NCBI GenBank assembly: GCA_031267895.1
Contig: JAIRYF010000051.1
Coordinates: forward strand, 1,561 to 65,560
Reading direction: 5' to 3'
From: Candidatus Methanoplasma glyptotermitis
GTDB lineage: Archaea; Thermoplasmatota; Thermoplasmata; Methanomassiliicoccales; Methanomethylophilaceae
DNA length: 64,000 nucleotides
The notes under the pieces were generated by a model, which saw only the letters and a program-made list of their open reading frames with translations, was not told the origin of the DNA and did no database searches. Positions 21,637 to 53,230 of the stretch are shown in pieces. The translations under genes and the position numbers were made by a program. How positions within the stretch are numbered: the stretch's first letter is position 1; each line of letters opens with the position of its first letter.

Positions 21637-22188
21637 ATGACATATTGTTCAAAATGCGGAAAGGAGACCGCCGGCGGATCGACATTCTGCTCCAGTTGTG
21701 GAGCGGCATTGTCAGGTCCGTCCGGAAGATACGAAGACCAAAACTACGGTCAGCAGAATCAGTACGAAAGCAGCAACTATAACCAGAATCAAGACTGGAG
21801 CAATAACTTCGGCCCCAACCAGGGGGGGGGGCCGCGGAATAACACATCCTCATTGGGCGGGACGCTGACGGTCATTCTTGTGCTGGGAATCCTGTGGGCA
21901 ATCATTTCGATTATATCTGGATTGGCCTGTATCTTCGGGGGCGGTTTCTTATTCTCTTTCTTCGCCGGACCTGTGCTGATCATCATCGGCATACTGAGTT
22001 TCGTGAGCGGACTATTTGCCCTGCTGAGCTGCATGAACATATTCAGACTGGAGAAACACCACGATGCCTACATCTACTGTCTGATCGGCTCCATATTGGG
22101 TCTGATTACAGGCGGTATCATTGCCGGGGCAATCGGAATAGCTTTTGCGTTTATTCTGAAAAAAGAACAGTACAGATTCAAATCATAA
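21637..22188 (+). CDS. zinc-ribbon / Q,N-rich / multi-TM membrane protein, function unknown
   Basis: 183 aa. N-terminal CSKCG...CSSCG zinc ribbon, a QN-rich linker, then 3-4 TM helices. AAGGAG lies 9 nt upstream of the ATG. The ORF contains the G10 tract. Confidence 0.6.
   Translation: MTYCSKCGKETAGGSTFCSSCGAALSGPSGRYEDQNYGQQNQYESSNYNQNQDWSNNFGPNQGGGPRNNTSSLGGTLTVILVLGILWAIISIISGLACIFGGGFLFSFFAGPVLIIIGILSFVSGLFALLSCMNIFRLEKHHDAYIYCLIGSILGLITGGIIAGAIGIAFAFILKKEQYRFKS
21822..21831. repeat. G10 homopolymer tract inside the CDS 21637-22188 (codons Q-G-G-G-P)
   Basis: Read directly from the sequence: aaccaGGGGGGGGGGccgcgg. Confidence 0.95.
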
Positions 22189-22194
22189 ACCAAG

Positions 22195-22224
22195 AGGCCG
22201 CAATGGCCTATTTCTTTTATTTTC
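22195..22224 (+). terminator. hairpin plus T-rich tract downstream of 21637-22188
   Basis: AGGCC-GCAAT-GGCCT followed by ATTTCTTTTATTTTC, starting 7 nt after the TAA stop. Confidence 0.4.
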
Positions 22225-22276
22225 AAATTCGGCAATTGCCAGAATGCCCGCCTCACTTTCTGTCATTTATCCTGAC

Positions 22277-22287
22277 TTTGACAGTTG
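22277..22287. repeat. TTTGACAGTTG motif copy 1 (inverted copy at 22622-22632; 1-mismatch direct copy at 22432-22442)
   Basis: Read directly from the sequence, within a non-coding stretch of about 690 bp. Confidence 0.8.
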
Positions 22288-22879
22288 GGATTTTTCAACA
22301 TATGTTTTGACGAAAATCTGACAGAAGAATCGTCCCGCCGACACATGTCCGAATCAGATCAGCCATATAGTCAATGTATGTCTTCTTATGTGTTTCATTT
22401 GGAAAATAATTGTGTTTATTTCCGAAAAGAATTTGACAGCTGCGTCTCTCTGTGTTGTTACAACAGCTGTTTTCCGGATAAGGACTCCTTATACTGCTGT
22501 TTCTTTTCTCTGTGTATCAGGATCTGTTGCAAAAAAACAAGAATTGTGTGCTGATATATGTTAAAATCGCTGCCTGATGAGATGTTTCCGGATCGCGGGA
22601 TCACTGTCTGACCGCAAAACTCAACTGTCAAATTATCAGAAGAATGAAATTTCAAGGCGACTGTCGAAGTCAGGTTATTACATTAGGACGGAAAAACAGA
22701 GAAAGGGGCATTTGAGGGTTTCTTTCTGCAATCGGATATTCCGATGCCGAAGGCAACCCGCGATGCCTAAAATGAAGAGTATCCAACACAACAATCCGGG
22801 GTCAGCCGAGGCACCGAATATCTGACGCAGGCACCAAACTCAATCCTAACCCGCAAATAGTTGGTTGGGGGCGATGGTT

Positions 22880-23881
22880 TCAGTCCATTGCCCTGTTGAA
22901 TGCAAGTTCTGTAATGATCCTGCAGTTTTCCATAATTCTTTTCGAAGAAAACAGAACGATTTCCCGGACATACTCTGACGCGTTGTGCGCTTTGATATTC
23001 GACACAACCTTATCATTGATGCTCGAAATCACCCCATCTATATCTGAGATCATCTGTTCTGCCAATACGATATCTTTGTTTATCCAGCTCTCTATCGAGT
23101 TCGTCAGAATTTCAGAGATGCCTTCCCCTGTCTTATAAATGCACTCATCTACGCGGCGAAGGTCGCCGACATCCGATATCAAGACCAGGTAATTTGATGT
23201 AGAAATAGCATGGTTCCCTATGCTCACAAGTACTCTTGAGAGCGATAGGCATGATGAGAGCTCGTATAGAGGCACATTCATCTTTCGAGATGCGGTCGCA
23301 TCTTTCATAGCTATGTTACACTGCCTCGCGATCAGACCATGAACCCTGTTTATCTCCGCATATCTGAAATTCATATCCCTTAGGCTATCAACATCTCCGG
23401 TGAATGCCGCATCATACATATCATGAATCATACCCTTGACCAGCAATCTCATTTTTTCGACTATCTTTTTGGTGTTGACCGCACTTTGTTCCATAAGATC
23501 GGAAATAAGAATGTGAGAATCATCAGCCTCTATAGTCTCAAGACCTATAGCAGTCTGCACGAAGCTCGATGAAGCCGTTGTGACCACGCTTGGCATCGGC
23601 GGGTCCGATGTTACGACGATTGTCATGTGTCCGGCAATGTATGCACCAACCAGCTGTCTGTACAGAAACCCACGGGTCTTTATGTTTGTGGCATCAATGA
23701 CCTTAGTGGTGCGCTTAATTTCCGGAGCGGAACCGGTTGGGTACAGCGTCAGACTCCCATCCGGCTGAGCCTGAAGGCCCACAGAGTCATTTTTCTTCAA
23801 ACCTACGGAATTCCCCCACTCTTTGGGGAGAGTGATCATGAACGAGGAACCCCCCGTTATTTGCACACGTCTCAAATCCAT
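22880..23881 (-). CDS. AbrB/SpoVT-domain + PhoU-domain phosphate-uptake-regulator-like protein
   Basis: The N-terminus MDLRRVQITGGSSFMITLPKEWGNSVGLKK is a SpoVT/AbrB swapped-hairpin type, followed by two helical PhoU-like repeats. Start placed at the Met of MDLRRV. Confidence 0.78.
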   Translation of the reverse strand: MDLRRVQITGGSSFMITLPKEWGNSVGLKKNDSVGLQAQPDGSLTLYPTGSAPEIKRTTKVIDATNIKTRGFLYRQLVGAYIAGHMTIVVTSDPPMPSVVTTASSSFVQTAIGLETIEADDSHILISDLMEQSAVNTKKIVEKMRLLVKGMIHDMYDAAFTGDVDSLRDMNFRYAEINRVHGLIARQCNIAMKDATASRKMNVPLYELSSCLSLSRVLVSIGNHAISTSNYLVLISDVGDLRRVDECIYKTGEGISEILTNSIESWINKDIVLAEQMISDIDGVISSINDKVVSNIKAHNASEYVREIVLFSSKRIMENCRIITELAFNRAMD

Positions 23882-24313
23882 ACCACAGACAATAACCAAC
23901 ATAGCATATAAAAATATCCATAAAATCTGGAAATAAATATATTCAATATTACTATAAATGATGCCTCAATATGTAGATACAAATAGATTTAATACATACT
24001 AAATCATCATATCTTATTTAATTTATTGCACACATTATACAACTCCGCAGAAGTCAAACACACATCCAGATATACGCTGCGACGGTCTGATTCGGATCAC
24101 AGTCTGTGTACTTGCCGAGATCGATTGCCCGGACCATCTTCCGAATATATACACCCGATGGCCGCTGACAAAAACCATTAACACTCTCCATAATCATGAG
24201 TAAAAGCGTTACTACCGCTGTTTATTGATTTTGCAATCTTCTCTTTTGGGTGTTAACTCGGCTGTCACACACATCTTACATGGACTACATCCCTTCATCG
24301 ACTGAATGGCCCC

Positions 24314-29417: not shown

Positions 29418-29494
29418 TGGTGCCCGCGCCGGAATTCGAATCCGGGTCAAGAGATCCGCAATCTCTCAGGATATCCAAGCTACCCCACGCGGGC
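29418..29494 (-). tRNA. tRNA-Arg (anticodon GCG), CCA encoded
   Basis: The reverse complement folds as follows. Acceptor GCCCGCG/CGCGGGC, anticodon stem AGAGA/TCTCT, loop TTGCGGA, T arm CCGGA-TTCGAAT-TCCGG, then A-CCA. The 3' end lies 1 nt from the convergent NFACT gene stop. Confidence 0.9.
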
Positions 29495-29534
29495 GGTATT
29501 ACTCCGCGGAAAATTTGCTGGTTACTAAACGGTT

Positions 29535-29726
29535 TCAAATTTCCGGACGGGACAGATAGCGCGTTATGTATCCCGCTATTCTGTTCCTCATCTTGACCGA
29601 ATAGACGTCCGTGAGGTTGTTGACCATCTCTTTGTTGTTCTCAAAATCCCTACTGAATACCTGAGGGTATTTGTTGAGAAGTTCGATGGAAACTCTCTTG
29701 ATGTATGTGGGCCTTATTCTTCCCAT
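29535..29726 (-). CDS. rps17e: 30S ribosomal protein S17e
   Basis: 63 aa, MGRIRPTYIKRVSIELLNKYP...RNRIAGYITR, typical of S17e. Confidence 0.92.
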   Translation of the reverse strand: MGRIRPTYIKRVSIELLNKYPQVFSRDFENNKEMVNNLTDVYSVKMRNRIAGYITRYLSRPEI

Positions 29727-30468
29727 TGTCCTTCACCGATATGGACCCGATTAAGTGGATTCATATTTAAGCTTTGTTGGGTTCCCGCTTCGCATCGGAC
29801 CGTTGCCGCTTATTCCGGAACAGGGAACCCATCGGCTTCGTGTTCCGCATATCGAAAGGCATATCGCCATGCTGTTGACTGTTTGTATCCTCAAGTGCCA
29901 TTCCCCACCTGCATTGCAACAGCGATTGGGAACATATTTGATTGATTGTGTTTCGGATACACTATATTTTATATCTCTTATCAGTAGGCATGTATCCAAA
30001 ACTCCCACCCTCTGTTGCGGCGGTCGGTTCCGGTCGAAGACAATGAAGGCTGATGGTCCGGTTATGGAGACATACAGTGCAGTCACAGAAAATCGGGCGG
30101 TAAAGATGCAGGTATCCCTGCAGTTACAGGAATGCTGTCTGCGGTGATCGTTGCATACATGGCGATAACGGGAGTCCGAAGTCGCATTGATGGCAGCCAG
30201 CGAAATGATTACATGAAATATGGCCGCTGGTGTTATCGATCCTCTTATCAGCACGGCAATGTCTGCGGTCGGAAAATGATGGAGACTGAGCAGAACATCT
30301 TCCCGAGAATTCTTCGAGGCGTATTATGGGCGGACTTTGGGGTCGATTCAAGCGGTTTTTGGCAGAAGAATATAACATTCCCTCTTTCGAAAGTCCTGCT
30401 ACGCGAGGCATGCGCGGTTTGACGGTATATGTCACTGCCCCCGAATCTGCTTTTTCTGTTTCCTCGCG

Positions 30469-30705
30469 ATGATCGATGTGCTGTTAAGAGATGGTGCACA
30501 CTGGAGGTCCCTTGTGACGATATATGTCGGAGTCGCATTCCTCAGTGTGACCTTCCTGTACGGGATGAGAGTTGCGGGGAAGATTGAATCGCCACGCTCA
30601 GATGAGGAAACGCTTGTCATGGTCAAGAAAGGAACCCTCACAATTGTCGCGTTAATGATCGTTTCATTCGCAGTGGGGATCGGGATGCAGAATTTTTTGT
30701 ACTGA
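30469..30705 (+). CDS. possible small 2-TM membrane protein
   Basis: 78 aa with two hydrophobic helices (SLVTIYVGVAFLSVTFLYG and LTIVALMIVSFAVGIGM). No recognisable RBS and no known family. Confidence 0.3.
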   Translation: MIDVLLRDGAHWRSLVTIYVGVAFLSVTFLYGMRVAGKIESPRSDEETLVMVKKGTLTIVALMIVSFAVGIGMQNFLY

Positions 30706-31138
30706 TGTCTCTGTTCGTGCGACGTATACATGTGCGACAGCCGTCAGGCTCCAGTGTGTGCTCCCGATACCGGGCGACTCATACAGAAATCATATACCAG
30801 CACGCGGCAAAGAAATGCCAGACGGCTAAGCTACGCGAACCCATGGCACAGACCTTTACGGAACGACCGTCAAGGGCATGATCGGTTCGTTCCTCGGATC
30901 GGTTTCGACGCTAGAGCCGTACGCATAGACGGAAAGGTGTTTCCCCGTTCTCAATCGGAGTCTTCCGTTATCGGAATGTATCCAGAACCGTCTGTTCCAG
31001 TGCCGGAGGCACCTGGACAGACCTCAATCGACCGTTTCGGAACCAGGACAGTTAACTGGGAACGCGCAAGCTTTGCGAAGAATGCATAGCCTTCGGCGCA
31101 AGCTACCGGGATCGATTGCGTAAGTGTCAGACTCGGAT

Positions 31139-31327
31139 TCAAGATGCGATTTTTTTCCTGTTTGCCTCGATAACGGATATCGAGATCCCCGCAAAGGCGG
31201 CCACGAGGGTTCCAGAAAGAGCAACGTTACTCACGATCATTCTTGCAGCACCCAAATCTCCTCTGCTCACATTCAGGAGCAGAAGGGACAGGTACAACAC
31301 AAAATACACGACCACAATAACAGTCAC
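31139..31327 (-). CDS. possible small 2-TM membrane protein downstream of the leader-peptide-like gene
   Basis: 62 aa, GTG start, two hydrophobic helices. Lies 50 nt downstream of the 31378-31671 ORF on the same strand. Confidence 0.35.
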   Translation of the reverse strand: MTVIVVVYFVLYLSLLLLNVSRGDLGAARMIVSNVALSGTLVAAFAGISISVIEANRKKIAS

Positions 31328-31377
31328 ACCGAGAAAACTATTTTTTCGCTCGCACTCAAAGCACCCACAGCATCACT

Positions 31378-31671
31378 TCATTTCAGCTGTTTGTATCCGT
31401 CTACAATCGCATAGGCACCTAATATCTGGCCTACTACAGCTGGAGTCGAGAAGGCCGCTATGCCTCCCGCCAAACTGATAAGCCCAAGTCCGATCTGACC
31501 GAGGGCTGCCTGGTTTCTATCAATATAATCCCATGCGCCTATTATGCTACCCGTCGCATACGAGACAAGGTCGCCCAATACTCCCAGTCCATCGTATTCC
31601 ATTTCCTCTTCAGACAGCTCCACATACCTTTTCGGCATTTTCATCTCATAGTTGTTTACATCAGAAAACAA
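31378..31671 (-). CDS. 97-aa peptide with double-glycine-leader-like N-terminus and Gly-rich hydrophobic C-terminal region
   Basis: TTG start preceded by GGGAGG with a 7-nt spacer. The N-terminus ...VELSEEEMEYDGLG resembles the LSxxELxxIxGG leader. The rest is GxxxG-rich and amphipathic/hydrophobic (GQIGLGLISLAGGIAAF...GQILGAYAIVDG). Confidence 0.5.
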   Translation of the reverse strand: MFSDVNNYEMKMPKRYVELSEEEMEYDGLGVLGDLVSYATGSIIGAWDYIDRNQAALGQIGLGLISLAGGIAAFSTPAVVGQILGAYAIVDGYKQLK

Positions 31672-31788
31672 TTATATTCCTCCCTACTATTTTTATGCAA
31701 CAGTTGACCGATGAATTGCCCTTAGACCATTTATAGATATGTAGCAATAGGCTCTGGTGAAACCGGAGTTTGTTCAGACTAACCGAAT

Positions 31789-31800
31789 AACTCTGAACAC
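31789..31800. repeat. 12-nt direct repeat AACTCTGAACAC (copy 1)
   Basis: An identical 12-mer occurs at 33235-33246. The two copies bracket the transposase remnants. Confidence 0.85.
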
Positions 31801-33234
31801 GTTTACGAAGAACCGCGGAATAAACGGGATACCGTTATGAAAATGACCGGATGCCCTGCCGGCCATGCCTGCGATCTGCACGAACACGGGAAAGGTTCAA
31901 TTATGCCCGGACCGATGTGTGTCCCGGAGGAGAGCTTAAGCTCATGTGCGCGTGTTGGCAGAATCAGCACATCCTCCGACCCGTTCTCATACCATGAGAA
32001 TAAAAGCCAGAGCCTGGATGCAGAAGAATTTGCATAGGATCTTGTTCTCACGTCCCTTGTGCCGTGTTCCTTTCACTGCGAAGCTTATCCATTTCTTCAT
32101 TGATGCGTGAGTTGTTTCGCATCTGCTTCTTGCTTTCAGCCGGATATCTCTGATCAGATCCGTCAGGTTCCGGTTTCTGAGGAACATTCCTGTCAGTTCC
32201 CCTTTGCCGCTGTCCGACAGGAGCTTAAGCTTCTGAGGAAGAATCATATTTCTGTTACCTCCTGTCTTCCATAACCGATTGACAATCCTTCCGATATCGG
32301 CTTCCTAACGATACACCGAGGATTCTTTCATACGTGTTATCGGAATCATGCCCAGTTCTGTCCAGGTCAATGCGTATGTATCGAACGGATCATAAGATGC
32401 GTCGGCCATGAGATATTTTGCTTTGAGCCTGCATATTCCCATTTTCTTTCCTCTCTGAATGAGTCCTTTTGCAAACGGATTGTCCTGAGCATTGCCGTTC
32501 GGATATGCCATGGCCGCCGGCATACCCTCCACCATCAGAATGTGCGCTTTATCCGTGTTGATCAGGTAATGCCGATTGAAGTCCGCCTGTTTATCTCCCC
32601 CGGAAGCTCACGGAGGAGCGGAATCCAATGTCACTGCGGAATCATCGTTTCCCGCGGAGACGAAATATCTGCCGAATTCTTCTGACAGATCAGTCATCAG
32701 ATTCGGGATCAGAATATGATTGACAAAATGATTCAGTCCTGCTGCGGACGGTATCATGATCCTGCCGTCTTTGATGGGAAACCCGAGAATGAACGCATCC
32801 TCGGTGCTCAGCGGTGATGCAATACCTCTGTATGTCTGTCTCCTGCATTCCATCAGAATGTACAGAAGGATCATGCTGACAGTACCATAGGTGTATGCGC
32901 CGCGTTTCGGAGAATGTTTTCTTTTGTACTCTCTTACCGTTTCCGACCCGGATATCATCTCATCCAGTGTCAAAAGATCATCAGCGGTCAGTTCTCTTGT
33001 GCTCTTGGTCCTTGCTCTTGGTCCTTTAGCTGGCAGCATATAAAAACTACCATATATAAATATATAATAATTGCGAAAATAGCAAATAATAGTTATACAA
33101 AAACAGCAAACAGCGTTTATACAAAAACAACTCGCCGAACTCCTCCGGAAGAACCCACATCGGCAGCACGGATGACTGAAAGAAAAACGATACGGGAAAC
33201 GGAATTTACCCCATTTGTTTTTATATTAATCCAA
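31801..33234 (-). mobile_element. decayed DDE insertion sequence (IS4/IS5-like), about 1.43 kb
   Basis: The interval between the two 12-nt direct repeats contains the three transposase fragments. Terminal inverted repeats could not be identified by eye. Confidence 0.5.
31987..33039 (-). pseudogene. DDE transposase split over three reading frames
   Basis: Fragments 32608-33039 (..AVTLDSAPP, first D region), 32305-32535 (LMADASYD, second D region) and 31987-32247 (RSRCETTHASMKK.., the R..VE..F..K-type E region) lie in different frames on the same strand. Confidence 0.7.
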
Positions 33235-33246
33235 AACTCTGAACAC
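33235..33246. repeat. 12-nt direct repeat AACTCTGAACAC (copy 2)
   Basis: Identical to 31789-31800. Confidence 0.85.
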
Positions 33247-33336
33247 AGACATAATATGTTTAATGCACACCAGGTTGAACATATCCGAGATAATTGTGCG
33301 ATGGTGATAGTAAACAGCATTTGAGTATACAAACGG

Positions 33337-43732: not shown

Positions 43733-44323
43733 ATGGAAGAACTGACAAAGATGACCGAAGATGCGCTCAGGATATTTCGGGACATCGAATCTCGAAGAGA
43801 GTGCGCAATAAGACGCTCCAGAGACATAATAAGGGAGACCAAAAGAATGATTCATTCGATACATATTTCGGATGACGGCACCGTATCGAGAGATGCGCTT
43901 ATGAAACTCGTTTCGGATCTTATATCCGAGACCGGCGGTGATCCTTTCGTTATGAACACTGCTCCGGTGACAGATGCTCTGGCCGAGTACGCCGAGGCGA
44001 TGATTCTGGATTCTGTTATCAAAAACGGATGTGTCCTTTCGTTCGGAGACCTGAACATAGGTCCGCAGCCCTGGATTCTGGGCCTTGCGGATTGTCTCGG
44101 TGAGATGCGCAGAGTGATTCTGACATCGCTCATGTCCGGAGATCTGGAAAAAGCAGAGTCCGTATTCTCCAAAATGGAAGAAATATGCCATGAATTAATG
44201 CTCTTTGATGTTCCCGACTCCATACTTCCGATAAGAAGGAAACAAGACATAGCCAGAGGAATTATGGAGAGAACAAGGACAGACATCGCCAATGCAGTCG
44301 TGCTGTCAAAAGCAAGATGTTAA
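43733..44323 (+). CDS. translin-family protein
   Basis: 196 aa, all-helical. LGLADCLGEMRRV (D..GE..R) and IRRKQD motifs resemble the translin/TRAX family. Confidence 0.7.
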   Translation: MEELTKMTEDALRIFRDIESRRECAIRRSRDIIRETKRMIHSIHISDDGTVSRDALMKLVSDLISETGGDPFVMNTAPVTDALAEYAEAMILDSVIKNGCVLSFGDLNIGPQPWILGLADCLGEMRRVILTSLMSGDLEKAESVFSKMEEICHELMLFDVPDSILPIRRKQDIARGIMERTRTDIANAVVLSKARC

Positions 44324-44850
44324 ACCTGAATCTGCGGACGATGTTTTGATGAAATATCCAGGTCAATGCGGAACAGAAGTGCCCTGAATGAATTGATTTG
44401 TTTGCGAGAAGGAATCAATTTCAGTTCCGTGTTCATATAGCGGAGGAGAACAAATCACTGTCTGCAGAGATAATCGTGCATCGGCTGTCAGTCACATGCA
44501 GTTAGAACGCGATATACGCGTGGGTGAACACAGCCAAATCAACAGACAGGGGAGTAACAGAAGTCGGCATATTTAGAGTGGGCGAAGTCCGGAACAAATC
44601 GTCTACACGATTCATGCGTTCATCAATAATATGCAACTTTGATGAAAGCTTATGATCATGTGCGTGACAGAAGACAGCGTGCCGAGGTTCCCCGGAGATG
44701 AGACAGTAACTTCATAGACAAATAAAAAGGAGCTTTTCGGCCTGTGCGAAAAACCGAATTGTATTCTCATTCAGACACCTGTCGTATCAGGGAAAAGAGA
44801 ACGCATTCCTGTGCACTGTCAGCTGCCGCGATGCTGAGTTCCGTATAGGG

Positions 44851-44867
44851 GTGGGGGACACCCCCAC
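44851..44867 (-). terminator. perfect GC hairpin between convergent genes; a short oligo-T run lies on the minus strand next to the stop
   Basis: GTGGGGG-ACA-CCCCCAC. On the minus strand, CTTTTG (44881-44886) follows the TGA of 44892-45680. Confidence 0.25.
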
Positions 44868-44891
44868 AAAGGGTATTTTACAAAAGCGCGC

Positions 44892-45680
44892 TCAGCGCCT
44901 CGATTTCGGTTTGCCGTAGTTCTTCACAGGCTTACGGTAAAGGTAGATCAGTATGACAACCAGCACTACCAGGAAAACAGCCAAAAAGATGTTGACCAGC
45001 CCGTAATCATAATGACCGACATAGAACTCTTTTTCTCCCCCTGATATTACTTCTTTGTAGTCTCCGATGTTTTCATCCCCGGCAACCACATTGAAGGTAT
45101 GCTTCCCGTTTGAGAGATTTTCGGCCACCCATTCGTATGAGACGGTCTCCGATTCTCCGGCGACTACCGACACCAGAGTTTTGCTGTCCTCAACGAACCC
45201 TCCGTCAACGTAGAAATAGACTGCAAAGTCAGTGAAATCTACTTTGCTGTTGTTTTTAAGAACAGCGGTCAGAGTTATCGGCTCCAGAACAGTGACTGTC
45301 TGCGTCCTCTCTGTCACAACAGGATCCTCATCGTCCTTATTCTCCGTAAAGGTAACAGTCAGAACATACCTGCCCGCAGTTTCCGGTGCGGTCACGGTCA
45401 GTTCTGTCTCCACGCCGTTCGAGAGATTTCCCGATGAAGGAAATACGGCACCCGCCCGGCTACCGCTGCTGTTCTTAAGATCGGCTGTGTATGATATTCC
45501 CAGCGTTTCGAACTCCTCGGATTCGAAGAACATTATCTGGTATGTGAGGTCGCCGTTGACCTTCACCGCATTCTTCTCTCCCTTTATAACGGAACTCGCT
45601 CCGTCAACATCCGATGAGTCGTCAAGCAGGATCGCTCCTGCTGCGAAGACCATCGCAAACACTGCTATCGCAGTGATCAC
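44892..45680 (-). CDS. secreted or membrane-anchored beta-rich surface protein
   Basis: N-terminal hydrophobic signal/anchor (ITAIAVFAMVFAAGAILL), a beta-rich body, then a C-terminal TM helix with a basic tail (FLAVFLVVLVVILIYLYRKPVKNYGKPKSRR). Start proposed at GTG 45680, which forms a GTGA overlap with the upstream stop. Alternative ATGs at 45719 and 45746 lie inside the upstream gene. Confidence 0.6.
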   Translation of the reverse strand: MITAIAVFAMVFAAGAILLDDSSDVDGASSVIKGEKNAVKVNGDLTYQIMFFESEEFETLGISYTADLKNSSGSRAGAVFPSSGNLSNGVETELTVTAPETAGRYVLTVTFTENKDDEDPVVTERTQTVTVLEPITLTAVLKNNSKVDFTDFAVYFYVDGGFVEDSKTLVSVVAGESETVSYEWVAENLSNGKHTFNVVAGDENIGDYKEVISGGEKEFYVGHYDYGLVNIFLAVFLVVLVVILIYLYRKPVKNYGKPKSRR

Positions 45681-48600
45681 TTTCTGCGTACAAACACCCC
45701 CTTCTTCATTCCAAACCATGCCATGGCTATAAGAGCCAGGATACATAGTGCTATCAGTGCCGCAGACGATGCGGGCATCGAACCAGAATCATCGTATACA
45801 TTGCTGCCGGAAGCAGACATATCTTCGGATTCCATCTCGGCAGGCTGTGCGTTCATGCTGAATGTCGCATTATTGCCTACAATGCTTACTCCGCTGCTGT
45901 TGGTGCTGAGGTTCTGACCCTGCGCCGTAACAGTTACATTGACAACCGGGACGCTGGTGTCGGTGGCATCCCTGCACATCAGCTTTATGTATATCACAGT
46001 GGAACCGTACCCGCTGACCTTATAGGAATTCGCTCCTGCCGCAGAAGATATGTTTCCTTCGCCTTTGTCAGAGTATACTACCGACCACTTGCCGCTCCCG
46101 CCGGATATCAAAGCCGATATCGACACGGTCTTGAGGTAGTTGTCATGATTGGTTATCGTCACCGCATACATGTACTCATACCCGCTGACAGCATCGACAA
46201 ACGCATCCTCCGTACCGCTTACATCGACATATGTGTCTGTAGTCCTGATCGGGGACATCGCACTGCCGTCCAAAACATAAGTTCCGACGCTGCTGCCGTT
46301 AAGCGATGTCACGGTAACGGACAGATTCTCATTGCCAGCACCGATATTTTCGGCATCATAAGATCCCGACACGGTGACGGTACCGGATGACTTCGCACCG
46401 ACCGTCAGTGTATACTCTTTATCAAGAATCCACGCCGACCCTGCTTTGACGATGTACGTCACACCGAAGTCGCCCGTGTTTTTGACCGTCAAGATGAACG
46501 ACCCGCGCCCGTTCGAGAAGCTGAAGCCGCTTCCGGATAGGTCAAGTCCGGACTGAGATGACGATGTTGTCGCCGGGAAATGTATCGATGCTCCGTCGGT
46601 CACTTCGGCTTCCGACATTGATGCCGTTCCTGTGTACCTGTACTCTGTGCCATTTACGGTCTTGCCGAGACTGGCACTTAGCTGCATGGCTTTTCCGGCA
46701 GGCACGGTAATTTCAAATATCCCGTCGGTCACTGTGAACGGTATCGTCACATTCCCATATGTCACTCTTAGTTCTCCGTTCGCCGTCACTCCGAGATATC
46801 CCTTAACGATCGCCTTATCGGCTTTGTCCGACAGATTCAGGGTCACCGGGCCTGTTGCGCTGGCGACCGATGCATATGCGATCCTCTCGGTTCCTTCCCC
46901 GGCACCGGACACTGCTTTGAAGTAGAACCCTTTGCCCCTCTCCAGATAGTAGACTAGAGGGTTATCGGAATCCACAAAATAACCGCCTGCCTCCTCATCG
47001 GTAGGTGTTACAGTTATCTCATCCGTGGCCGAAGCATTCAGTTCCACCCTCACCACATTCGTGACCTCTATGTTCAGAGAACCGCTGTGTCCCGGATACA
47101 CATACACCGTTCCGCTGTAGTAATACCCCGTGCTGCCCTTTATGACAGCGGTGTACTGGCCCGGTATCACAGAGGTCAGACCCGACACATTGTATGTTGT
47201 CGATGAACTGTTGTACAGAGTGATACTGACAGGCACGCCATTGGATACACTGACCGTCTTCACGTAACTGTCCGAATCGTCTGACTCATTAGCCGCAATA
47301 CTCCACGTGTAAGACGTGTCGCCTGTCCCTGCCGAGATATCCGTCGACCGTTCTTCCATGTGGAACCTGGCTGTATCGAATCCGGATATACTCATGACTG
47401 CCTTGTTTCCCTCCGGGACGGTGAATATAGCCTTCCCGTCCGAGTTCGTTTTCACAGTTATGCTGTATTCGGTGTTGCCAACCGAAATACTCATATTCAC
47501 ATCGGCAAAAGCTATCCCTCTGGTACTGGATGAGGACATGTTCGTCCTGTAGCTGACCGTTATAGTAATGTCGCGGGACTTTGACATAGAGATGTTTCCC
47601 AGATCCGTGTCCCCGGAGACCGTCACCGTTGATATTGATGAACTTGATGATCCGAAGAGATACATCGTGTATGTTCCCGCCGGCAGCCTGACATCGAATT
47701 TGCCGTCTTCGCCTGACGTGAATATGAATGTCGCCCCGCCGTCTCCTATAAACGATACAGTGGCTGACACTTTCTCACCCGCACTGTCCTCCGAGACCCC
47801 TTTGACACTGTATCCGGCTGCACCGGCAAGCGACACACTGCTGCCGGCCGAAACTCCGTAGTACACCATATTTCCGCTCACCGCGTATGCGGTGTACTTC
47901 TCGCCGATGCCCGCACTGCCGTTGATAGTCGGAACGGCAAGACTCGCCGATGACGACGAAGTCACGAAACCGTAAGACATCAGCGTAATCAGACTTCCGG
48001 ACGGTGCTCCCGTCACGGAGATACTCCTTGAATCATACAGAGTCAGCGATGCGGATTTAGACCCATTGCTCGAAACCGTCACGCTTGGATTGGATACGGA
48101 GACCTTGCCATCGGCCGCATAAATCACATATGTCGACGGCACGACGGACATTTCGATCTTTCCGTCGGTGGCACCCGCCACACTCGCACGGAATTCGGCA
48201 CCGGTCAACGTGTCTCTTGCAACTATCGTTCCGGTCTTCGCATTCGCACCTACATCATCTGTTGCCGTGACGGTTATCTTTCCGGATGTGGCCGACATTT
48301 GGAATCCTGCATTCGGTCCCGCATTTGCGGTCACGCTTGCCGTATTTATCGTCGTTCCTGACGGCGAATAGACGGTGACTTCATATATGTCTGGGATCAC
48401 ATTTCCGAACACGAAAATTCCATTCGAGACCTTTGTTTCGTATTTTTCACCAGATGCCTTCCCCGTCATTCCGACATAGCAGTCCTCCGTGTACGGATCG
48501 GTTCCCACGACGACACTCCCGGACAGATTTGTCACAGGTATGTCCAACCGCGAATCGGCAGATATCATGTTCCAGCGTGTATCGATCACAGATCCTGTCA

Positions 48601-51367
48601 CAATGGTATCGGTTCCAGATGAGAACACAACATAGTATTCGCCGCTAACCGGTACCGACACATCATACGAGCCGTTGGCTTTTGTGAATACAGTCGATTT
48701 TTTCACGTACCCTGCGATTCCGGATGTGTCATAGTCTGTCTTCACAAACACCGACACCTGTATGCCGCCAGCCCCTTTTGCCCCATTCGGCGAAACGTAG
48801 CTGACAGTCCCGGAGACCTCTTCGGTCATCGTAGAGTCGTATTCCATCAGCACGACACCGTTGACGTAGTTCACAAGTCCGCCGTCCTCACTCTGACGTT
48901 TCATGGCTTCGAATGCGTCCATGTCTTCCCACCCGTCGGATGAACCGTCAGCCTTGCTGTCCGGATTGTAATAAACATGCCAGTACGCTATCTTGTAGTC
49001 GGATAGCCCGTACCCCGGATTCGCTTTGACAGACCCGTCGCTCAAGGCAAGCGCGTTAAGATAAGTCGTGGATGAGGTGTATCCCGCCTCTGCGGGGGAC
49101 ATTCCTATGAGCGATTTCCAAAAGAAAGTATCGTACATAGCATCCGTATACGCCGCATAACCGCTCTCCACACCATACGTATAGTAGTAATTGGGGGCAC
49201 CGTATCCGTCCATGTTTTTGCTCCCGAGATAGGCCACACTTGAGAAGTACGTCCCATCGCCGTAGTAGAGGGGCAGCATGCTCCTGTCTGCAAGCACATA
49301 TTTTATCGACTTCCCGCTTGTGCCGCATATACTGTCATACAGAGAATTGATGCTCTGTTCGGATATCGTTGCCGTTATGTACCTGATGAGCACAGCATAC
49401 AGTGCATTTTCTTCGGTGATGCTCGGGCTGACCCCCGGATACAGAGCAACATTATTCTTCACTTCCGTTACGGCGGTCGAAGGATCATCAGTGTATCCCT
49501 TAATCTTACTGTAGTCCAGACCTGCGGCCCTTATCGCAGACTCAAACGATGCCAGACCGTCTGCAAGCACCAGGCGTATTGCCATAGCGGCTGTCGCTAC
49601 GGAGCTGCTCGTCGCAAGGATCGCCGCAGACAGAGCGGACGCACCGCCGCCGTACGGGTCTGTGACTGAATCGAAACCTCCGTTCGATGCTGAATTCACA
49701 GAATAGTTCAGCCAAGCCAGCAATGCACCGTCTTTTTCGATGCCATTGTAATAATCCCACATTTTGTCAACTGAGTTCACGTCATTCGTTATTATGGTGT
49801 ATCCGAGGCCTCCGAAGTATCCGTCGCCTTCCGAATTCGTAGGTATGCCTGCATCGACTGCATACACCGCATTCGGCACCGCGACCAAAGCCACGATCGC
49901 TATGGTTACGGCCAAAGGAATCGGTTTCAGAGCTTTCCTCAGTGCGTATTTGATGCCATTGCCTCTCATGTCCGCAAAGTAGCCCCTCAGATCCACCCTT
50001 CTTATCACCATAAGGATCACAGCCGCCGATGCGACTGCGAAACCCATGCCCGCTATAGCGGCATACGATGTCGAATACCACCCTATGCAGAACATTGCGA
50101 GGATCCATAACATGGTAAACGTATACTTTCTGGAATCCATGTTTCCGCGGTACTTGTACAGCATGTACAGGAACATTACGAGAGGCAGCCATACAGTCAC
50201 CCATCCGAAGAACGATGCCATCGATGATATTGATGTCCTTGATGCTCCCGAAACCAGACCGGACATCTGTCCGCCCGTGTATACAGAGTTTCCGTTCACG
50301 ACCGCAGAGAACAGTTCGCCCGACGCAAAGAAGAGCACTGCGAGTACGATTGCCGCAATGATCAGCGTAACGGGTATCATGAGCACCCATGACCTGCCGG
50401 CGGTCTTGCTAAGGAAAACCGTAAGAGCAACGGACAGAAAAGCCAGTATAAACGGTCCCGAAAATATCTGGACCCACAGTCCTGCCGCAAGGTAATAGGG
50501 TGCCGATATCAGCACACCCACCAGTATAACCAACGAGTACACTCCGACCGTCGGTATCATCTCTTTGGATCTGAGGCGGTCGATCACCGCCTGGGCGGCC
50601 ATAAAGAACACCAGCATCAGAAGAATTACGCGGAATTGATTCCATGACAGTGCTATCATCGCAAACAGTATTCCTGCGGCGAGCGCATTTTTGAGCAGGG
50701 TTCTGTCGCCTATCATTGCTCTGAACCCGTCGGGCTGCGTCTTGTCGCAGCAGTCAAGTGCTTTGAGCAGGAAATACAGCATGAAGGAGAACAGGAACCC
50801 TACGAACGCGTACTCCGTGCCGTTCGAGAAGGATGTGGTCATCACCATCAGCGCGAAGAACGCATACAAGAGCGCTGCCAGCAGACCTATCTTCTCATCA
50901 CTGAACATTTTCCTACCGATCAGATACACAGGCCAGCATGTAAGGGCCGCGAATATCGGTGCCGAGAACGCCAATGTTCCGGCCGCTGCGGTTCCCGCGG
51001 AAATGCCAAACATCGACACTATTCCTGCAACACCTGACAGGATTATATCCATCAGCGGGGGGTAGACGTTAACGGAACCGTATGGGTAATTGAGGGCCGG
51101 GTCAGTGAACGTGAACGAACCGCCGAGGATGTTCTCGATTATGTGAACGTGAATCGATGCTCCCGACCCGCCGGACAGAGCAAAATCGCTCCCGGCGGAC
51201 ACACCGTATGCGAAAACAAATCTCATGACAAAAGCCACGACCATGATCGCTAGCAGTGTTATCAGGCGCCATTCTCTCTTAAACCATACTCCCTGGCCGT
51301 CATCCGATGCCGGCAGGAAGCCCCCATCCGAGACGGGTCTGGCTGACCTAACTCCAAATTTACGCAT
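45677..51367 (-). CDS. 1896-aa fusion protein: STT3/AglB-like GT-C membrane domain, multiple CarboxypepD_reg-like beta-sandwich repeats, C-terminal TM anchor
   Basis: Residues about 30-505 are polytopic membrane and carry the AglB-like EL1 block IIENILGG..FTDPALNYPYGSVNVYPPLMD. At least 6 repeats follow the pattern DGKFDVRLPAGTYTMYL / NGIFVFGNVIPDIYEVTVY / DGIFEITVPAGKAMQL. The C-terminus ALIALCILALIAMAWFGMKKGVFVRRK is a TM anchor. Confidence 0.8.
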   Translation of the reverse strand: MRKFGVRSARPVSDGGFLPASDDGQGVWFKREWRLITLLAIMVVAFVMRFVFAYGVSAGSDFALSGGSGASIHVHIIENILGGSFTFTDPALNYPYGSVNVYPPLMDIILSGVAGIVSMFGISAGTAAAGTLAFSAPIFAALTCWPVYLIGRKMFSDEKIGLLAALLYAFFALMVMTTSFSNGTEYAFVGFLFSFMLYFLLKALDCCDKTQPDGFRAMIGDRTLLKNALAAGILFAMIALSWNQFRVILLMLVFFMAAQAVIDRLRSKEMIPTVGVYSLVILVGVLISAPYYLAAGLWVQIFSGPFILAFLSVALTVFLSKTAGRSWVLMIPVTLIIAAIVLAVLFFASGELFSAVVNGNSVYTGGQMSGLVSGASRTSISSMASFFGWVTVWLPLVMFLYMLYKYRGNMDSRKYTFTMLWILAMFCIGWYSTSYAAIAGMGFAVASAAVILMVIRRVDLRGYFADMRGNGIKYALRKALKPIPLAVTIAIVALVAVPNAVYAVDAGIPTNSEGDGYFGGLGYTIITNDVNSVDKMWDYYNGIEKDGALLAWLNYSVNSASNGGFDSVTDPYGGGASALSAAILATSSSVATAAMAIRLVLADGLASFESAIRAAGLDYSKIKGYTDDPSTAVTEVKNNVALYPGVSPSITEENALYAVLIRYITATISEQSINSLYDSICGTSGKSIKYVLADRSMLPLYYGDGTYFSSVAYLGSKNMDGYGAPNYYYTYGVESGYAAYTDAMYDTFFWKSLIGMSPAEAGYTSSTTYLNALALSDGSVKANPGYGLSDYKIAYWHVYYNPDSKADGSSDGWEDMDAFEAMKRQSEDGGLVNYVNGVVLMEYDSTMTEEVSGTVSYVSPNGAKGAGGIQVSVFVKTDYDTSGIAGYVKKSTVFTKANGSYDVSVPVSGEYYVVFSSGTDTIVTGSVIDTRWNMISADSRLDIPVTNLSGSVVVGTDPYTEDCYVGMTGKASGEKYETKVSNGIFVFGNVIPDIYEVTVYSPSGTTINTASVTANAGPNAGFQMSATSGKITVTATDDVGANAKTGTIVARDTLTGAEFRASVAGATDGKIEMSVVPSTYVIYAADGKVSVSNPSVTVSSNGSKSASLTLYDSRSISVTGAPSGSLITLMSYGFVTSSSSASLAVPTINGSAGIGEKYTAYAVSGNMVYYGVSAGSSVSLAGAAGYSVKGVSEDSAGEKVSATVSFIGDGGATFIFTSGEDGKFDVRLPAGTYTMYLFGSSSSSISTVTVSGDTDLGNISMSKSRDITITVSYRTNMSSSSTRGIAFADVNMSISVGNTEYSITVKTNSDGKAIFTVPEGNKAVMSISGFDTARFHMEERSTDISAGTGDTSYTWSIAANESDDSDSYVKTVSVSNGVPVSITLYNSSSTTYNVSGLTSVIPGQYTAVIKGSTGYYYSGTVYVYPGHSGSLNIEVTNVVRVELNASATDEITVTPTDEEAGGYFVDSDNPLVYYLERGKGFYFKAVSGAGEGTERIAYASVASATGPVTLNLSDKADKAIVKGYLGVTANGELRVTYGNVTIPFTVTDGIFEITVPAGKAMQLSASLGKTVNGTEYRYTGTASMSEAEVTDGASIHFPATTSSSQSGLDLSGSGFSFSNGRGSFILTVKNTGDFGVTYIVKAGSAWILDKEYTLTVGAKSSGTVTVSGSYDAENIGAGNENLSVTVTSLNGSSVGTYVLDGSAMSPIRTTDTYVDVSGTEDAFVDAVSGYEYMYAVTITNHDNYLKTVSISALISGGSGKWSVVYSDKGEGNISSAAGANSYKVSGYGSTVIYIKLMCRDATDTSVPVVNVTVTAQGQNLSTNSSGVSIVGNNATFSMNAQPAEMESEDMSASGSNVYDDSGSMPASSAALIALCILALIAMAWFGMKKGVFVRRK

Positions 51368-51463: not shown

Positions 51464-52108
51464 TCAGAGCAGCGACTTAATCTCGTCTCCTATAGACAGT
51501 GCTGCCGACCTGGGATCGTCCGAGCCGTATATTGCTCTGCCCGCTATCACATAGTCCGCGCCCGCGGATACCGCGGAATACGCACTCCCTCCCTGTGAAC
51601 CGACCCCCGGAGAGAGAATCTTCAGATCTCCGGCTATCTTCCTTATTGCCTTTATCCTGTCCGGCCTTGTGGCCGGTGCGATGAACCCTGCCGCCCCGCA
51701 TCTCACTCCGAGTTCGGCCATCTCCTCTGCATGCGGTGCCGTAAACGCCGTTCCCCCCGGGTGGCTCATTTCCGTTACCGCAAATACCTCTGCATTCCCG
51801 GCCGCAATGACCGCTTCTCTCAGAGAATCCCCGCCCGCAAATGCATGCACTATGATGCCGGACGCTCCCCTGGAGACCGATTCCTCCACTATCAGGCGCA
51901 CAGTGTTGGGTATATCCGCCACTTTGAAATCACATATAACATCAGATATCTGGGACAGCCGGTTTATCATATCCGGCCCGGCAGACAGTACCAGCGGCCA
52001 ATTTATCTTTATCGCATCCACAACATCTGAGACGGACTCCGCTGTCTTTTCGGCCTTCTCTCCGTCCGTCTCGTCCAACGCGAGTATGAGTCCCGTTTCT
52101 CTTCTCAT
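51464..52108 (-). CDS. pyrF: orotidine 5'-phosphate decarboxylase
   Basis: LILALD, KINWPLV and DFKVADIPNT motifs. Start placed at ATG 52108 (MRRETGLILALD). Confidence 0.9.
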   Translation of the reverse strand: MRRETGLILALDETDGEKAEKTAESVSDVVDAIKINWPLVLSAGPDMINRLSQISDVICDFKVADIPNTVRLIVEESVSRGASGIIVHAFAGGDSLREAVIAAGNAEVFAVTEMSHPGGTAFTAPHAEEMAELGVRCGAAGFIAPATRPDRIKAIRKIAGDLKILSPGVGSQGGSAYSAVSAGADYVIAGRAIYGSDDPRSAALSIGDEIKSLL

Positions 52109-52132
52109 GGTCCGTGTTCTCCAAGCCTTCCA

Positions 52133-53230
52133 ATGTTTATTAAGACATCGCACCATCACCTGCTGATAATATTGAAGAAGTACGAATACTGCTCGGCCTC
52201 CAACGGTCCGCTCCCGGAAGGGTGCAGACACTGCACGAACGGGTCAAAAATGGTGCTGCTGATAACCGGCAGGTGCGACACCGGTTGTTTTTACTGTCCG
52301 ATATCTCCCAGCAAAAAGGGGAAGGATGTTATGTATGCCAACGAGAGGAGAATATTCCGTCTCGAAGAGATGATAGAAGAGGCCGAATCAATGGATGCAA
52401 CCGGAACAGGCATAACCGGCGGGGATCCGCTGACGGTTATGGAACGCACGGTATCTGCGATAAAGATCTTAAAAGAGCATTTCGGACAGAGCCATCATCT
52501 GCATCTGTATACATCGGTTGCGGACTTTGCGAAGGCTTCCGAACTCTGCGGGGCGGGTCTTGACGAAATACGGTTCCACCCGCCCATGTCCGTATGGGAC
52601 AGCATGGATTTCAAAGAAATATCGAAAATAGTCTCCGAAACATCCATGGACGTCGGGATAGAGGTACCAGCCATACCATGCAACGGGCAAAAACTGGAAA
52701 GGCTGGTTGTCTCTGCGGCGGAGACAGGTGTGAATTTCATAAACATAAACGAATTCGAATTTTCGGAGAGCAACTGGGATATGATGGAGAGGATGGGTTA
52801 CAAAGTAAAAAACGACCTTTCATCGGCTGTGGCCGGATCAGAGGAAGAAGCGATCGGACTTATGAAAAAGTATCCGAAATACCCAATACATTTCTGCTCC
52901 TCAGTATTCAAGGACGGGGTGCAGCTCAGGAAGAGACTGATCAGGATGGCCGATATTGCAGCCGGCAGATACGAGATTGTGACCGAAGACGGCACTTTGA
53001 TAAAGGGCACGGTGTGCGCAGATGACCTCGATGAGGCAGTGGCTCTGCTGTCGGAACTTCGGGTTCCGAAGAACCTGATGTACATTGACAGAGAAAGAAA
53101 CAGAATAGATGTCGCACCCTGGAAACTCAGAAGGATCTCAAAAAAGCTCCCGTACCTGTCATACATAGTGGAAGAGTACCCCACATTCGACAGAATGGAA
53201 GTGGAAAGAACGCCGCTGGCACACAAATAA
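52133..53230 (+). CDS. radical SAM domain protein, function unknown
   Basis: 365 aa. CRHC...LLITGRCDTGCFYCPIS contains a CxxxCxxC cluster motif. Conserved archaeal-type radical SAM architecture. Confidence 0.78.
   Translation: MFIKTSHHHLLIILKKYEYCSASNGPLPEGCRHCTNGSKMVLLITGRCDTGCFYCPISPSKKGKDVMYANERRIFRLEEMIEEAESMDATGTGITGGDPLTVMERTVSAIKILKEHFGQSHHLHLYTSVADFAKASELCGAGLDEIRFHPPMSVWDSMDFKEISKIVSETSMDVGIEVPAIPCNGQKLERLVVSAAETGVNFININEFEFSESNWDMMERMGYKVKNDLSSAVAGSEEEAIGLMKKYPKYPIHFCSSVFKDGVQLRKRLIRMADIAAGRYEIVTEDGTLIKGTVCADDLDEAVALLSELRVPKNLMYIDRERNRIDVAPWKLRRISKKLPYLSYIVEEYPTFDRMEVERTPLAHK

Follow-up and report, generated by a model that had tools for sequence, protein, structure and literature searches.

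The window analysed here, a 64-kb stretch (64,000 nucleotides) from a Methanoplasma-like archaeon in the host-associated family Methanomethylophilaceae, encodes a giant homologue of the archaeal oligosaccharyltransferase (OST) AglB in which the catalytic residues of its canonical orthologues have been replaced. We favor, at a probability of about 0.7, the reading that this protein is an OST-dead pseudoenzyme, which a lineage now mostly devoid of N-glycosylation retains as a surface protein anchored at both ends. The open reading frame (ORF) was verified in the ORF list at the coordinates and length originally predicted, and its start (MRKFG...) is kept across orthologues. Its parts and its two neighbors are laid out as follows.

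45677..51367, minus strand: degenerate giant AglB orthologue, whole ORF of 1896 aa (full-length orthologues in ~59 species)
49853..51280, minus strand: AglB/STT3-type GT-C membrane domain, residues ~30-505 (TIGR04154, profile, AF2, Foldseek)
48788..49852, minus strand: AglB-type extracellular globular domain spanning residues 506-860, an alpha/beta mixture that includes a helical insert (AF2, Foldseek)
45773..48787, minus strand: all-beta tail, residues 861-1865, ~80 strands in roughly ten predicted beta-sandwich domains (Pfam, AF2)
45680..45772, minus strand: C-terminal TM anchor, residues ~1866-1893, then a basic, clade-conserved KKGVFVRRK end (sequence, AF2)
44892..45746, minus strand: downstream, syntenic CARDB-domain surface protein with a TM segment at either end (the second protein in which sequons were counted)
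51464..52231, minus strand: upstream pyrF (OMP decarboxylase), the synteny anchor common to canonical-AglB loci

The original prediction likened the N-terminal part to an archaeal OST, and family models, profiles and structure comparison agree with it well beyond chance. The best family-model match is NCBIfam TIGR04154 (archaeo_STT3, the archaeosortase A system-associated oligosaccharyl transferase), which aligns residues 36-504 with model positions 2-484 at E=2e-33; the score of 115.8 bits lies far below the 450-bit cut-off, and the TM half of the model alone is matched. Alignment to PF02516, proposed at the outset, gave no match in the 1896-aa protein at E<=1, and among relatives P0001 passes this model (34.9 bits), P0005 falls short of it (21 bits) and P0003 gives no match. 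When a family profile was compared with the PDB, it found Archaeoglobus fulgidus AglB-L (AfAglB-L; 3WAJ/5GMY), the structurally characterised archaeal OST, at E=1e-20. Structure prediction, also proposed at the outset, gave an AF2 model of residues 1-880 with a pLDDT of 86.1 and a pTM of 0.81, for which the best Foldseek matches (7E9S/5GMY/3WAK, E ~1.5e-16) cover both the TM and the soluble domains. AfAglB-L, human STT3A/B, yeast Stt3 and PglB lead the list, and their alignments span almost the whole length. Residues ~30-860 are thus confidently predicted to adopt the AglB/STT3 (GT66, GT-C) fold of AfAglB-L (PDB 3WAJ/3WAK/5GMY/7E9S; TM-score 0.57-0.60), an N-terminal domain of 13 TM helices, as judged from AF2 helices and hydropathy, followed by an extracellular globular domain. 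The EL1 block IEN...FDP..YPYG is alignable between the two proteins, and relative to AfAglB-L the protein adds a beta-sandwich tail of ~1000 aa and a C-terminal TM anchor.

The gene lies in the order RNAP B-A'-A''-L7Ae-NusA / radical SAM / pyrF / gene / CARDB / Translin / GARS / cobW / GatD-GatE. Six canonical giant-AglB loci of other Methanomassiliicoccales share the pyrF-[gene]-CARDB-Translin arrangement with the window, and two such giants, QLH74806.1 (P0071, 2175 aa, CP058896.1) and P0156 (2112 aa), have the same architecture and an RGVFxRRK anchor at the C terminus, as does this protein. Identity over the AglB module is 25-29%. Since locus, domain order and anchor all coincide, the gene is the positional orthologue of canonical giant AglB. 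The protein had been proposed to be a catalytically inactive OST paralogue; the homology and the lack of a canonical catalytic apparatus stand, and the paralogue reading is rejected by synteny with fully canonical giants. The tail had been regarded as an unusual fusion or recruitment. A survey of relatives, as had been suggested, found instead that those with GGSD, DHD, TIAE and SWWDYG are just as large (2100-2700 aa) and end in the same tail, as do the canonical giants of ~2100-2200 aa that occupy this locus. The fusion is therefore an ancestral trait that many Thermoplasmata share, and motif loss alone is new. NCBI annotates the canonical giants as 'GT39 family' or 'carboxypeptidase regulatory-like domain' proteins.

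AF2 confidently models the tail as an all-beta array of ~80 strands, followed by the C-terminal TM helix; the figure of roughly ten domains is an estimate from strand count. Of the earlier description, the beta-sandwich tail and TM anchor are borne out, and the claim of at least six CarboxypepD_reg-like repeats is weakly supported: four stretches score below threshold (15-16 bits for PF13620, gathering score 32.3), a strict motif occurs 2-4 times, and self-BLAST found no internal repeats. The fold is best described as a generic beta-sandwich array, with MG, pilin or CnaB-like matches. Giant relatives that are further removed have PGF-CTERM-like anchors at their ends, in keeping with the name of the TIGR04154 family; the present protein ends in ...SSAALIALCILALIAMAWFGMKKGVFVRRK, without PGF, and the NCBIfam scan of the whole protein gave TIGR04154 alone, with no match to the PGF-CTERM model.

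Replacements at the catalytic and substrate-binding positions were read off alignments with the syntenic canonical orthologues, at 25-29% identity, anchored to AfAglB residues. In AfAglB, Asp47, Asp161/His163, Glu360 and the Leu356-Phe365 segment are metal-binding or essential, and Arg426 lies near the phosphate (PMC8342417). The corresponding positions are as follows.

51161..51163, minus strand: G69, at the first-DXD catalytic Asp (AfAglB Asp47; canonical GGSD; alignments and PMC8342417)
50810..50818, minus strand: T184-E185-Y186, at the second DXD (AfAglB Asp161-His-His163; canonical DHD; alignments)
50246..50260, minus strand: G370-G374 (G-L-V-S-G) in EL5, at the TIXE motif, with S373 or G374 equivalent to Glu360 (alignments)
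50066..50068, minus strand: S434, at the Arg/Lys position aligned with AfAglB Arg426 near the lipid-phosphate site (alignments and PMC8342417)
49700..49714, minus strand: W552-L553-N554-Y555-S556, a degenerate WWDYG (sequence, alignments)

The canonical giants keep GGSD, DHD, TI(A/S)E, the invariant R/K and SWWDYG, whereas this protein and its clade have lost them, as is apparent from a comparison of 68 canonical with 45 degenerate-clade representatives. At the first DXD the clade has S or G in most members and D in 6 of 45. The second DXD in EL2, which falls below the 90% conservation threshold in canonical sequences and was followed separately, reads D-H-D in 45-48 of 68 canonical representatives; here T184-E185-Y186 sits inside a clade-conserved S-N-G-T. 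These results bear out the suspicion that the EL1 acidic positions had been lost. The Thr, Glu and Ala of TIXE, 100% conserved in canonical sequences, are kept in no more than 7% of the clade, and no acidic residue occurs between E352 and D411 of the protein. Loss of the Asp/Glu had been predicted correctly, with the position now moved to ~370-374, just N-terminal to RTSISSM (377-383). R or K occupies the S434 position in 68/68 canonical sequences; no basic residue is among the four that the clade most often has there (S, D, E, A). As predicted, WWDYG is absent from the whole 1896-aa protein, and so is any WW dipeptide. Of two candidate equivalents, alignments select AWLNYS (551-556, nt 49700-49717), and MWDYY (536-540) was rejected. 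The protein still has the first W and the Y, and the clade keeps the second W in 9%, the D in 44% and the G in 9%; many relatives keep WIDYS, and some the EL1 Asp. The canonical-invariant FYAP..K block, which may or may not correspond to the DK/MI motif that completes the Ser/Thr pocket, has become FSSVAY. Among 77 columns at least 90% conserved in the 68 canonical sequences, <20% of the clade keeps 34, among them those catalytic columns that reach the threshold, and the 26 kept in at least 80% are nearly all G, P, W, Y or A. With the canonical catalytic apparatus gone, the protein is best read as a catalytically inactive OST homologue, and the alignments make inactivity of this protein most likely.

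The degenerate forms constitute one clade, separated by a single split (NJ bootstrap 200/200, 45 representatives). All 74 genome loci found belong to Methanomethylophilaceae-type species and have degenerate motifs, and ~59 of them carry intact full-length genes of 1812-1950 aa. Loss of the motifs is accompanied by loss of N-X-S/T enrichment. Canonical giant ectodomains have an observed/expected (O/E) sequon ratio of 2.22, which drops to 1.07 in the degenerate forms (p=1.5e-16, without phylogenetic correction), and the ratio is 1.17 across 59 degenerate genome orthologues (clade median 1.1-1.2). The neighboring CARDB protein behaves in the same way, with 27 sequons observed and 11.6 expected (2.3) at six canonical loci versus 123 and 105 (1.17) at 60 degenerate loci. 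Two observations run against this contrast: the protein in the window has a ratio of 1.45 (21 vs 14.5 expected, shuffle p=0.03), and P0064 and P0075, two of the nearest canonical relatives, lack enrichment. It had been reasoned that if this were the only aglB in the genome it would probably be the functional enzyme; given that sequon enrichment has collapsed in the clade, this does not hold.

We considered it unlikely that a separate canonical aglB sustains N-glycosylation while a redundant, inactivated copy has specialized as an envelope or adhesin protein, a modified version of the original proposal. Some archaea do have several AglB paralogues, with three in A. fulgidus (PMC3703281), and AglB-S1/S2 of A. 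fulgidus and other AglB paralogues are further STT3-family proteins of archaeal genomes; the 64 kb covered here is part of a genome, and sequon O/E is not below 1. Against this, the gene is a syntenic orthologue and not a duplicate, the 64-kb window holds no other STT3-like ORF, and collapse of sequons on two surface proteins is unexpected if an active OST glycosylated the surface. Canonical-seeded searches returned giants labelled Methanomassiliicoccales or Thermoplasmata, and no canonical protein labelled Methanomethylophilaceae; since their sensitivity is limited, this is weak evidence.

Somewhat less probable still is that the protein is an active OST or other GT-C transferase, and the functional AglB of the organism, with a non-canonical site (E185, D91, D108 or E78, for example, with a different metal or substrate arrangement). 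The TM domain is under purifying selection that equals that on canonical enzymes (conservation 0.365 within the clade and 0.366 among canonical sequences), W552, Y555 and D570 (at a DGGK/DNxT-like position) are retained, E185, in the middle of the lost second DXD, is found in 30/45 clade members, the protein is the orthologue of the presumably sole AglB of related lineages, and sequon O/E is slightly above 1. However, all the metal-binding and essential residues of AfAglB (PMC8342417) have become G, T, Y, S/G or S, a third of the clade has G, A, S or P instead of E185, and EL5 is relaxed (0.35 vs 0.49 in canonical sequences). The conservation comparison found no new polar residue (acidic, basic and His residues included) fixed in the clade, which, together with loss of the canonical 2.2-fold sequon enrichment from two surface proteins, disfavors a non-canonical active site. 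That the gene is a functionless, decaying relic, as lost motifs and a relaxed EL5 might imply, is effectively refuted by conservation of an uninterrupted 5.7-kb ORF in ~59 species diverging to ~40% identity, with an N-terminal module better conserved among distant orthologues (40-45%) than the tail (26-33%) and confident AF2 models of both halves.

Our preferred reading, an OST-dead pseudoenzyme, would start from an ancestral giant AglB comprising a 13-TM OST, an extracellular globular domain, ~1000 aa of beta-sandwiches and a C-terminal membrane anchor. The OST machinery would then have been lost in the lineage of this Methanoplasma-like organism. Small or neutral residues have taken the place of the metal- and Asn-activating carboxylates and of the lipid-phosphate Arg, and the TIXE strand and most of the Ser/Thr pocket formed by WWD have gone the same way. 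We propose that purifying selection continues because a second, ancestral role persists, that of a large ectodomain with a membrane anchor at either end, on cells which would lack an S-layer or wall. The data show homology, fold, orthology, the residue replacements, a single clade for the loss, conservation of an intact gene and the disappearance of sequon enrichment; catalytic inactivity, the structural or surface role and loss of N-glycosylation in this organism are inferred from there. We know of no described AglB or STT3 without catalytic residues, and a literature search for one found none; the AglB proteins described in the literature found retain WWDYG (PMC3703281). Cultured Methanomethylophilaceae have no S-layer and no cell wall, and M. 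alvi also lacks archaellum genes (PMC5011839; PMC10673518). Glycosyltransferase counts in the family are very low, with 6 in Methanoplasma termitum versus 41 in M. luminyensis (PMC9723798 Table S2).

A broader proposal, to which we would give slightly less than even odds, is that the Methanomethylophilaceae of human, ruminant and termite guts have lost N-glycosylation altogether, having no S-layer, catalytic AglB or sequon selection, and that the dead AglB has been kept through hundreds of millions of years of divergence because this giant enzyme also serves as an essential surface-coat or scaffold protein. If true, a whole family would have lost a pathway that is, to our knowledge, considered almost universal among Archaea, and the protein would be the first natural OST pseudoenzyme.

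Archaeal N-glycosylation has AglB as its signature enzyme; some species cannot live without it, and it is known from almost all archaeal genomes. The AglB/STT3-like protein of the window is encoded by a single long reading frame:

45677..51367, minus strand: giant AglB-like ORF, 1896 aa (ORF translation)

Hydropathy analysis placed its transmembrane (TM) segments in one block between residues 35 and 501, with one further segment at 1869-1887. A full-length Pfam scan recognized no STT3 domain and phmmer returned no PDB match; residues 36-504 match NCBIfam TIGR04154 (archaeo_STT3) at E=2e-33, scoring 115.8 bits where the cut-off is 450. A. fulgidus AglB-L (AfAglB; 3WAJ/5GMY) was matched only by a family profile built from the window protein plus five close homologues; that alignment spans residues 22-523 at E=1e-20, and human STT3A/B gave a weaker match. 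A confident AlphaFold2 (AF2) model of residues 1-880 (pLDDT 86.1, pTM 0.81) found AfAglB-L as its best PDB match (E about 1.5e-16, TM 0.57-0.60), followed by STT3 and PglB and then by other GT-C enzymes. From these profile and structure matches, the N-terminal 860 residues are therefore an AglB-type OST module, with a membrane domain and an extracellular globular domain; the original prediction had seen an oligosaccharyltransferase in about the first 560 residues.

The absence of WWDYG, also part of that prediction, was borne out: there is no 'WW' anywhere in the protein, and the sole match to W[WYFLI][DNEG][YFW][GSA] is WLNYS at 552. Residues were mapped by alignment with canonical giants, the motif-bearing AglBs of other Methanomassiliicoccales and Thermoplasmata (68 representatives), which share 25-29% identity with the window protein and can be aligned to it unambiguously.

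Canonical positions and their counterparts in the window protein, by alignment with canonical giants
GGSD Asp (AfAglB Asp47): G69
D-H-D (AfAglB Asp161/His163): T184-E185-Y186
TI(A/S)E Glu (AfAglB Glu360): S373 or G374, varying with the alignment
SWWDYG: A551-W552-L553-N554-Y555-S556
HPTVAD: F565-D566-S-V-T-D570

In AfAglB, Asp47, Asp161 and His163 are the metal ligands, Glu360 lies within TIXE, alanine scanning found Leu356-Phe365 to be critical, and His81 and Arg426 are close to the phosphate (PMC8342417). At the Arg426 position, where 68/68 canonical representatives have R or K, the window protein has S434; Y102 replaces a second Arg, present in 63/68 of the canonical set and close to the position of His81. 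As judged by alignment, all canonical catalytic and substrate-binding residues are replaced in the window protein, and the acidic residues suspected to be missing from the DXD-type and EL5 motifs have indeed given way to G69, T184-E185-Y186 and S373/G374.

A word-indexed homologue search gave only 5 matches, and an exhaustive HMM search was used instead; it yielded 1403 relatives at E<1e-3, of which 266 have E<1e-30. Giants of 1800-2700 aa account for nearly all of the best 150 matches. The closest ~60 have no TIXE and carry 'SNGTE' in place of 'DHD'; from database protein P0061 onward, the first DXD, second DXD, TIXE and WWDYG appear as GGSD(S/A)YYH, (N/D)(A/G)DHD, (S/T)TI(A/S)EAQ and SWWDYG. 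Two candidate "short" canonical AglBs, P0186 and P0189, were set aside as probably frameshifted or truncated giants with low-complexity C-terminal ends. The closest orthologue, 81% identical over residues 1-880, comes from a 'Candidatus Methanoplasma reticulitermitis' MAG, which places the source of the window as a Methanoplasma-like member of the Methanomethylophilaceae (order Methanomassiliicoccales). An exact look-up of the protein in assemblies found no record of it. The literature searched on AglB/OST in Methanomassiliicoccales contains no description of this gene or of a degenerate AglB.

A survey with each GTDB species represented by one genome found 74 loci, and 74/74 contigs carry the Methanomethylophilaceae-type gene, from Methanoplasma, Methanogranum, Methanomethylophilus and Methanoprimaticola. 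The gene is intact, at 1812-1950 aa, in about 59/74, most of the others being cut by contig ends. Degenerate motifs occur in all 74 (EL1 'SGG[STA][SG]A', EL2 'FS[NS]G[TN]E', no TIXE), with mostly 'xWIDYS' at the WWDYG position and 'W[LF][GNS]YS' in the Methanoplasma group. We refer to these orthologues as the degenerate clade; its 45 representatives form one split in a neighbor-joining (NJ) tree (bootstrap 200/200; 811 aligned columns), with P0061 and P0064 as the nearest canonical sequences. On this sequence evidence the motif loss was a single, ancient event common to the whole host-associated methanogen family. Among the loci are twelve in GTDB records with bacterial titles that carry this archaeal gene (L020, L021, L023, L024, L027, L029, L030, L035, L036, L038, L062 and L065; for example Dialister hominis, Bacteroidaceae, Lachnospiraceae, Prevotella hominis, Bacteroides ovatus, Bifidobacteriaceae and Faecalibacterium), at 40-45% identity over the full length, and these bins appear to be mislabelled or contaminated. 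At the former DXD site the clade reads S-N-G-T (window 50816-50827, S181-N182-G183-T184), very strongly conserved as S 45/45, N 39/45, G 45/45 and T 34/45; an N-X-T sequon thus occupies the exact former place of the metal-binding Asp.

The gene had been proposed to be a paralogue of OST, which its locus contradicts. Archaeal housekeeping genes in the window include RNA polymerase B/A'/A'', GatD/GatE, pyrF, purD and thyX. Six canonical-giant loci share the window gene order, RNAP B-A'-A''-L7Ae-NusA, a divergent radical-SAM gene, pyrF, the giant gene, a CARDB-domain membrane protein, Translin, purD, cobW-like, GatD and GatE; one of them (QLH74806.1) belongs to a Methanomassiliicoccales archaeon (chromosome CP058896.1, 1.8 Mb). 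By its position, the window gene is therefore orthologous to a canonical AglB.

Several other features of the window and its relatives were recorded. Taken at its longest, the ORF of the CARDB gene downstream (44892-45746, minus strand) shares 70 nt with the 3' end of the giant ORF (window 45677-45746); in related loci the CARDB gene begins at or just past the giant's stop codon, so the true start in the window is probably a later codon. The spacer between Translin and CARDB (window 44323-44892) is 570 nt long, with a longest ORF of at most 52 aa. In canonical loci L080 (13397-13762) and L081 (13449-13772) a small WCGPC thioredoxin gene lies 3' of the CARDB gene, and the L080 copy matches Pfam OST3_OST6. 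It was dropped as a candidate OST accessory subunit, being of cytoplasmic type and found in only 2/6 canonical loci; tblastn found no match in the 74 degenerate-lineage loci or the window, and the protein is probably cytoplasmic and unrelated to OST function. Elsewhere, window 29500-33300, directly after tRNA-Arg (29418-29494), is a stretch of ~3.7 kb without an ORF of at least 150 aa, save a borderline 167-aa ORF at 29751-30254; short ORFs and one 24-nt tandem duplicate (33076-33123) are all that it holds, and it could be a degraded integrated element or simply non-coding DNA. Window 22000-24000, between tRNA-Pro (21034) and tRNA-Thr (24355), has a GC content of 0.435 versus about 0.51 elsewhere and includes a PhoU/MazE-domain gene at 22880-23902.

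The tail, residues 861-1896, was modelled by AF2 (pLDDT 86.1, pTM 0.66) as about 80 beta-strands with a terminal helix at ~1866-1893. The beta-rich character and C-terminal helix first suggested for it thus stand, while the proposed CarboxypepD_reg repeats are only weakly supported: Pfam matches are sub-threshold, and regex and self-BLAST searches found essentially no internal sequence repeats. Foldseek matched only generic multi-beta-sandwich proteins at low overall TM-scores (alpha2-macroglobulin MG domains, Gram-positive pilins and adhesins, an archaeal S-layer subunit). Given 13 TM helices, both the globular domain and the tail lie outside the cell, and the last helix crosses back into the cytoplasm, where the protein ends in basic residues; the ectodomain of roughly 1360 aa is thus anchored at both ends. 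Canonical giants with intact motifs have the same beta-rich tail and 'RGVFxRR(K)' C-terminus. The fusion, originally considered unusual, is therefore older than the motif loss and general in this Thermoplasmata AglB family. The more distant canonical giants P0127 and P0139 have PGF-CTERM-like ends ('PGF...'), consistent with the 'archaeosortase A-associated' name of TIGR04154, whereas the Methanomassiliicoccales proteins, including that of the window (45680-45772), end in a TM helix and a conserved 'K/RGVFxRR(K)'.

An unbiased scan identified 77 columns at least 90% conserved in the canonical set. The degenerate clade keeps 34 of these in fewer than 20% of its sequences, including the catalytic columns that pass the threshold; the second DXD, less than 90% conserved in canonical sequences, falls outside the scan and was tracked separately. 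The 26 columns kept in at least 80% of the clade are, with few exceptions, the structural residues G, P, W, Y or A. At newly fixed positions the clade has A, G, M, W, P, V, S, F, I, N and Y, with no acidic, basic or His residue among them.

Mean pairwise identity within each group
TM domain: degenerate clade 0.365, canonical group 0.366
EL5: degenerate clade 0.35, canonical group 0.49

In distant orthologues the AglB module (40-45% identity) is better conserved than the tail (26-33%). Taken together, these patterns are the signature of catalysis lost and function kept.

Surface proteins provided a second line of evidence.

Sequons (N-X-S/T, X not Pro), observed versus composition-expected
Giant ectodomain, canonical (n=68), medians: observed 35.5, expected 14.6, O/E 2.22
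Giant ectodomain, degenerate (n=45), medians: observed 14, expected 12.7, O/E 1.07
Giant ectodomain, 59 genome orthologues: median O/E 1.17
Giant ectodomain, window protein: observed 21, expected 14.5, O/E 1.45 (shuffle p=0.03)
CARDB neighbour, six canonical loci pooled (small sample): observed 27, expected 11.6, O/E 2.3
CARDB neighbour, 60 degenerate loci pooled: observed 123, expected 105, O/E 1.17

Canonical and degenerate giants differ at p=1.5e-16 (Mann-Whitney, uncorrected for phylogeny); P0064 and P0075, two of the nearest canonical relatives, show no enrichment. Most simply read, these counts mean that surface proteins of the degenerate clade are no longer selected for N-glycosylation sites, an indirect argument against an active OST elsewhere in the genomes.

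In their sequences, then, the clade's genes have been retained intact and sequon enrichment has gone. We infer that the window protein is inactive as an OST (probability about 0.8). Its retained function has an even chance of being a structural or surface role from an ancestral bifunctional protein. The odds that N-glycosylation has been lost from the lineage, largely or entirely, are even or just short of even. Two members of the family, ISO4-H5 and Methanomethylophilus alvi Mx-05, have a single membrane and no S-layer or cell wall, and M. alvi also lacks archaellum genes (PMC5011839; PMC10673518); classical N-glycoprotein substrates are therefore absent. Glycosyltransferase counts by dbCAN are very low in the family (Methanoplasma termitum 6, Mx-02/03 7, M. 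alvus 12-13); M. luminyensis has 41 (PMC9723798 Table S2).

Giant AglBs, canonical ones included, carry the database names 'glycosyltransferase family 39 protein', 'carboxypeptidase regulatory-like domain-containing protein', 'peptide transporter' and 'hypothetical', and automatic annotation has largely missed their AglB identity. As a further warning, the mere presence of an STT3 homologue should not be taken as a sign of N-glycosylation capacity. The degenerate protein is a natural 'separation-of-function' variant, which implies a second, non-enzymatic role of giant Thermoplasmata AglB, and it offers a testable case of N-glycosylation loss in medically and agriculturally relevant gut methanogens, of which Methanomethylophilus alvi is cultured.
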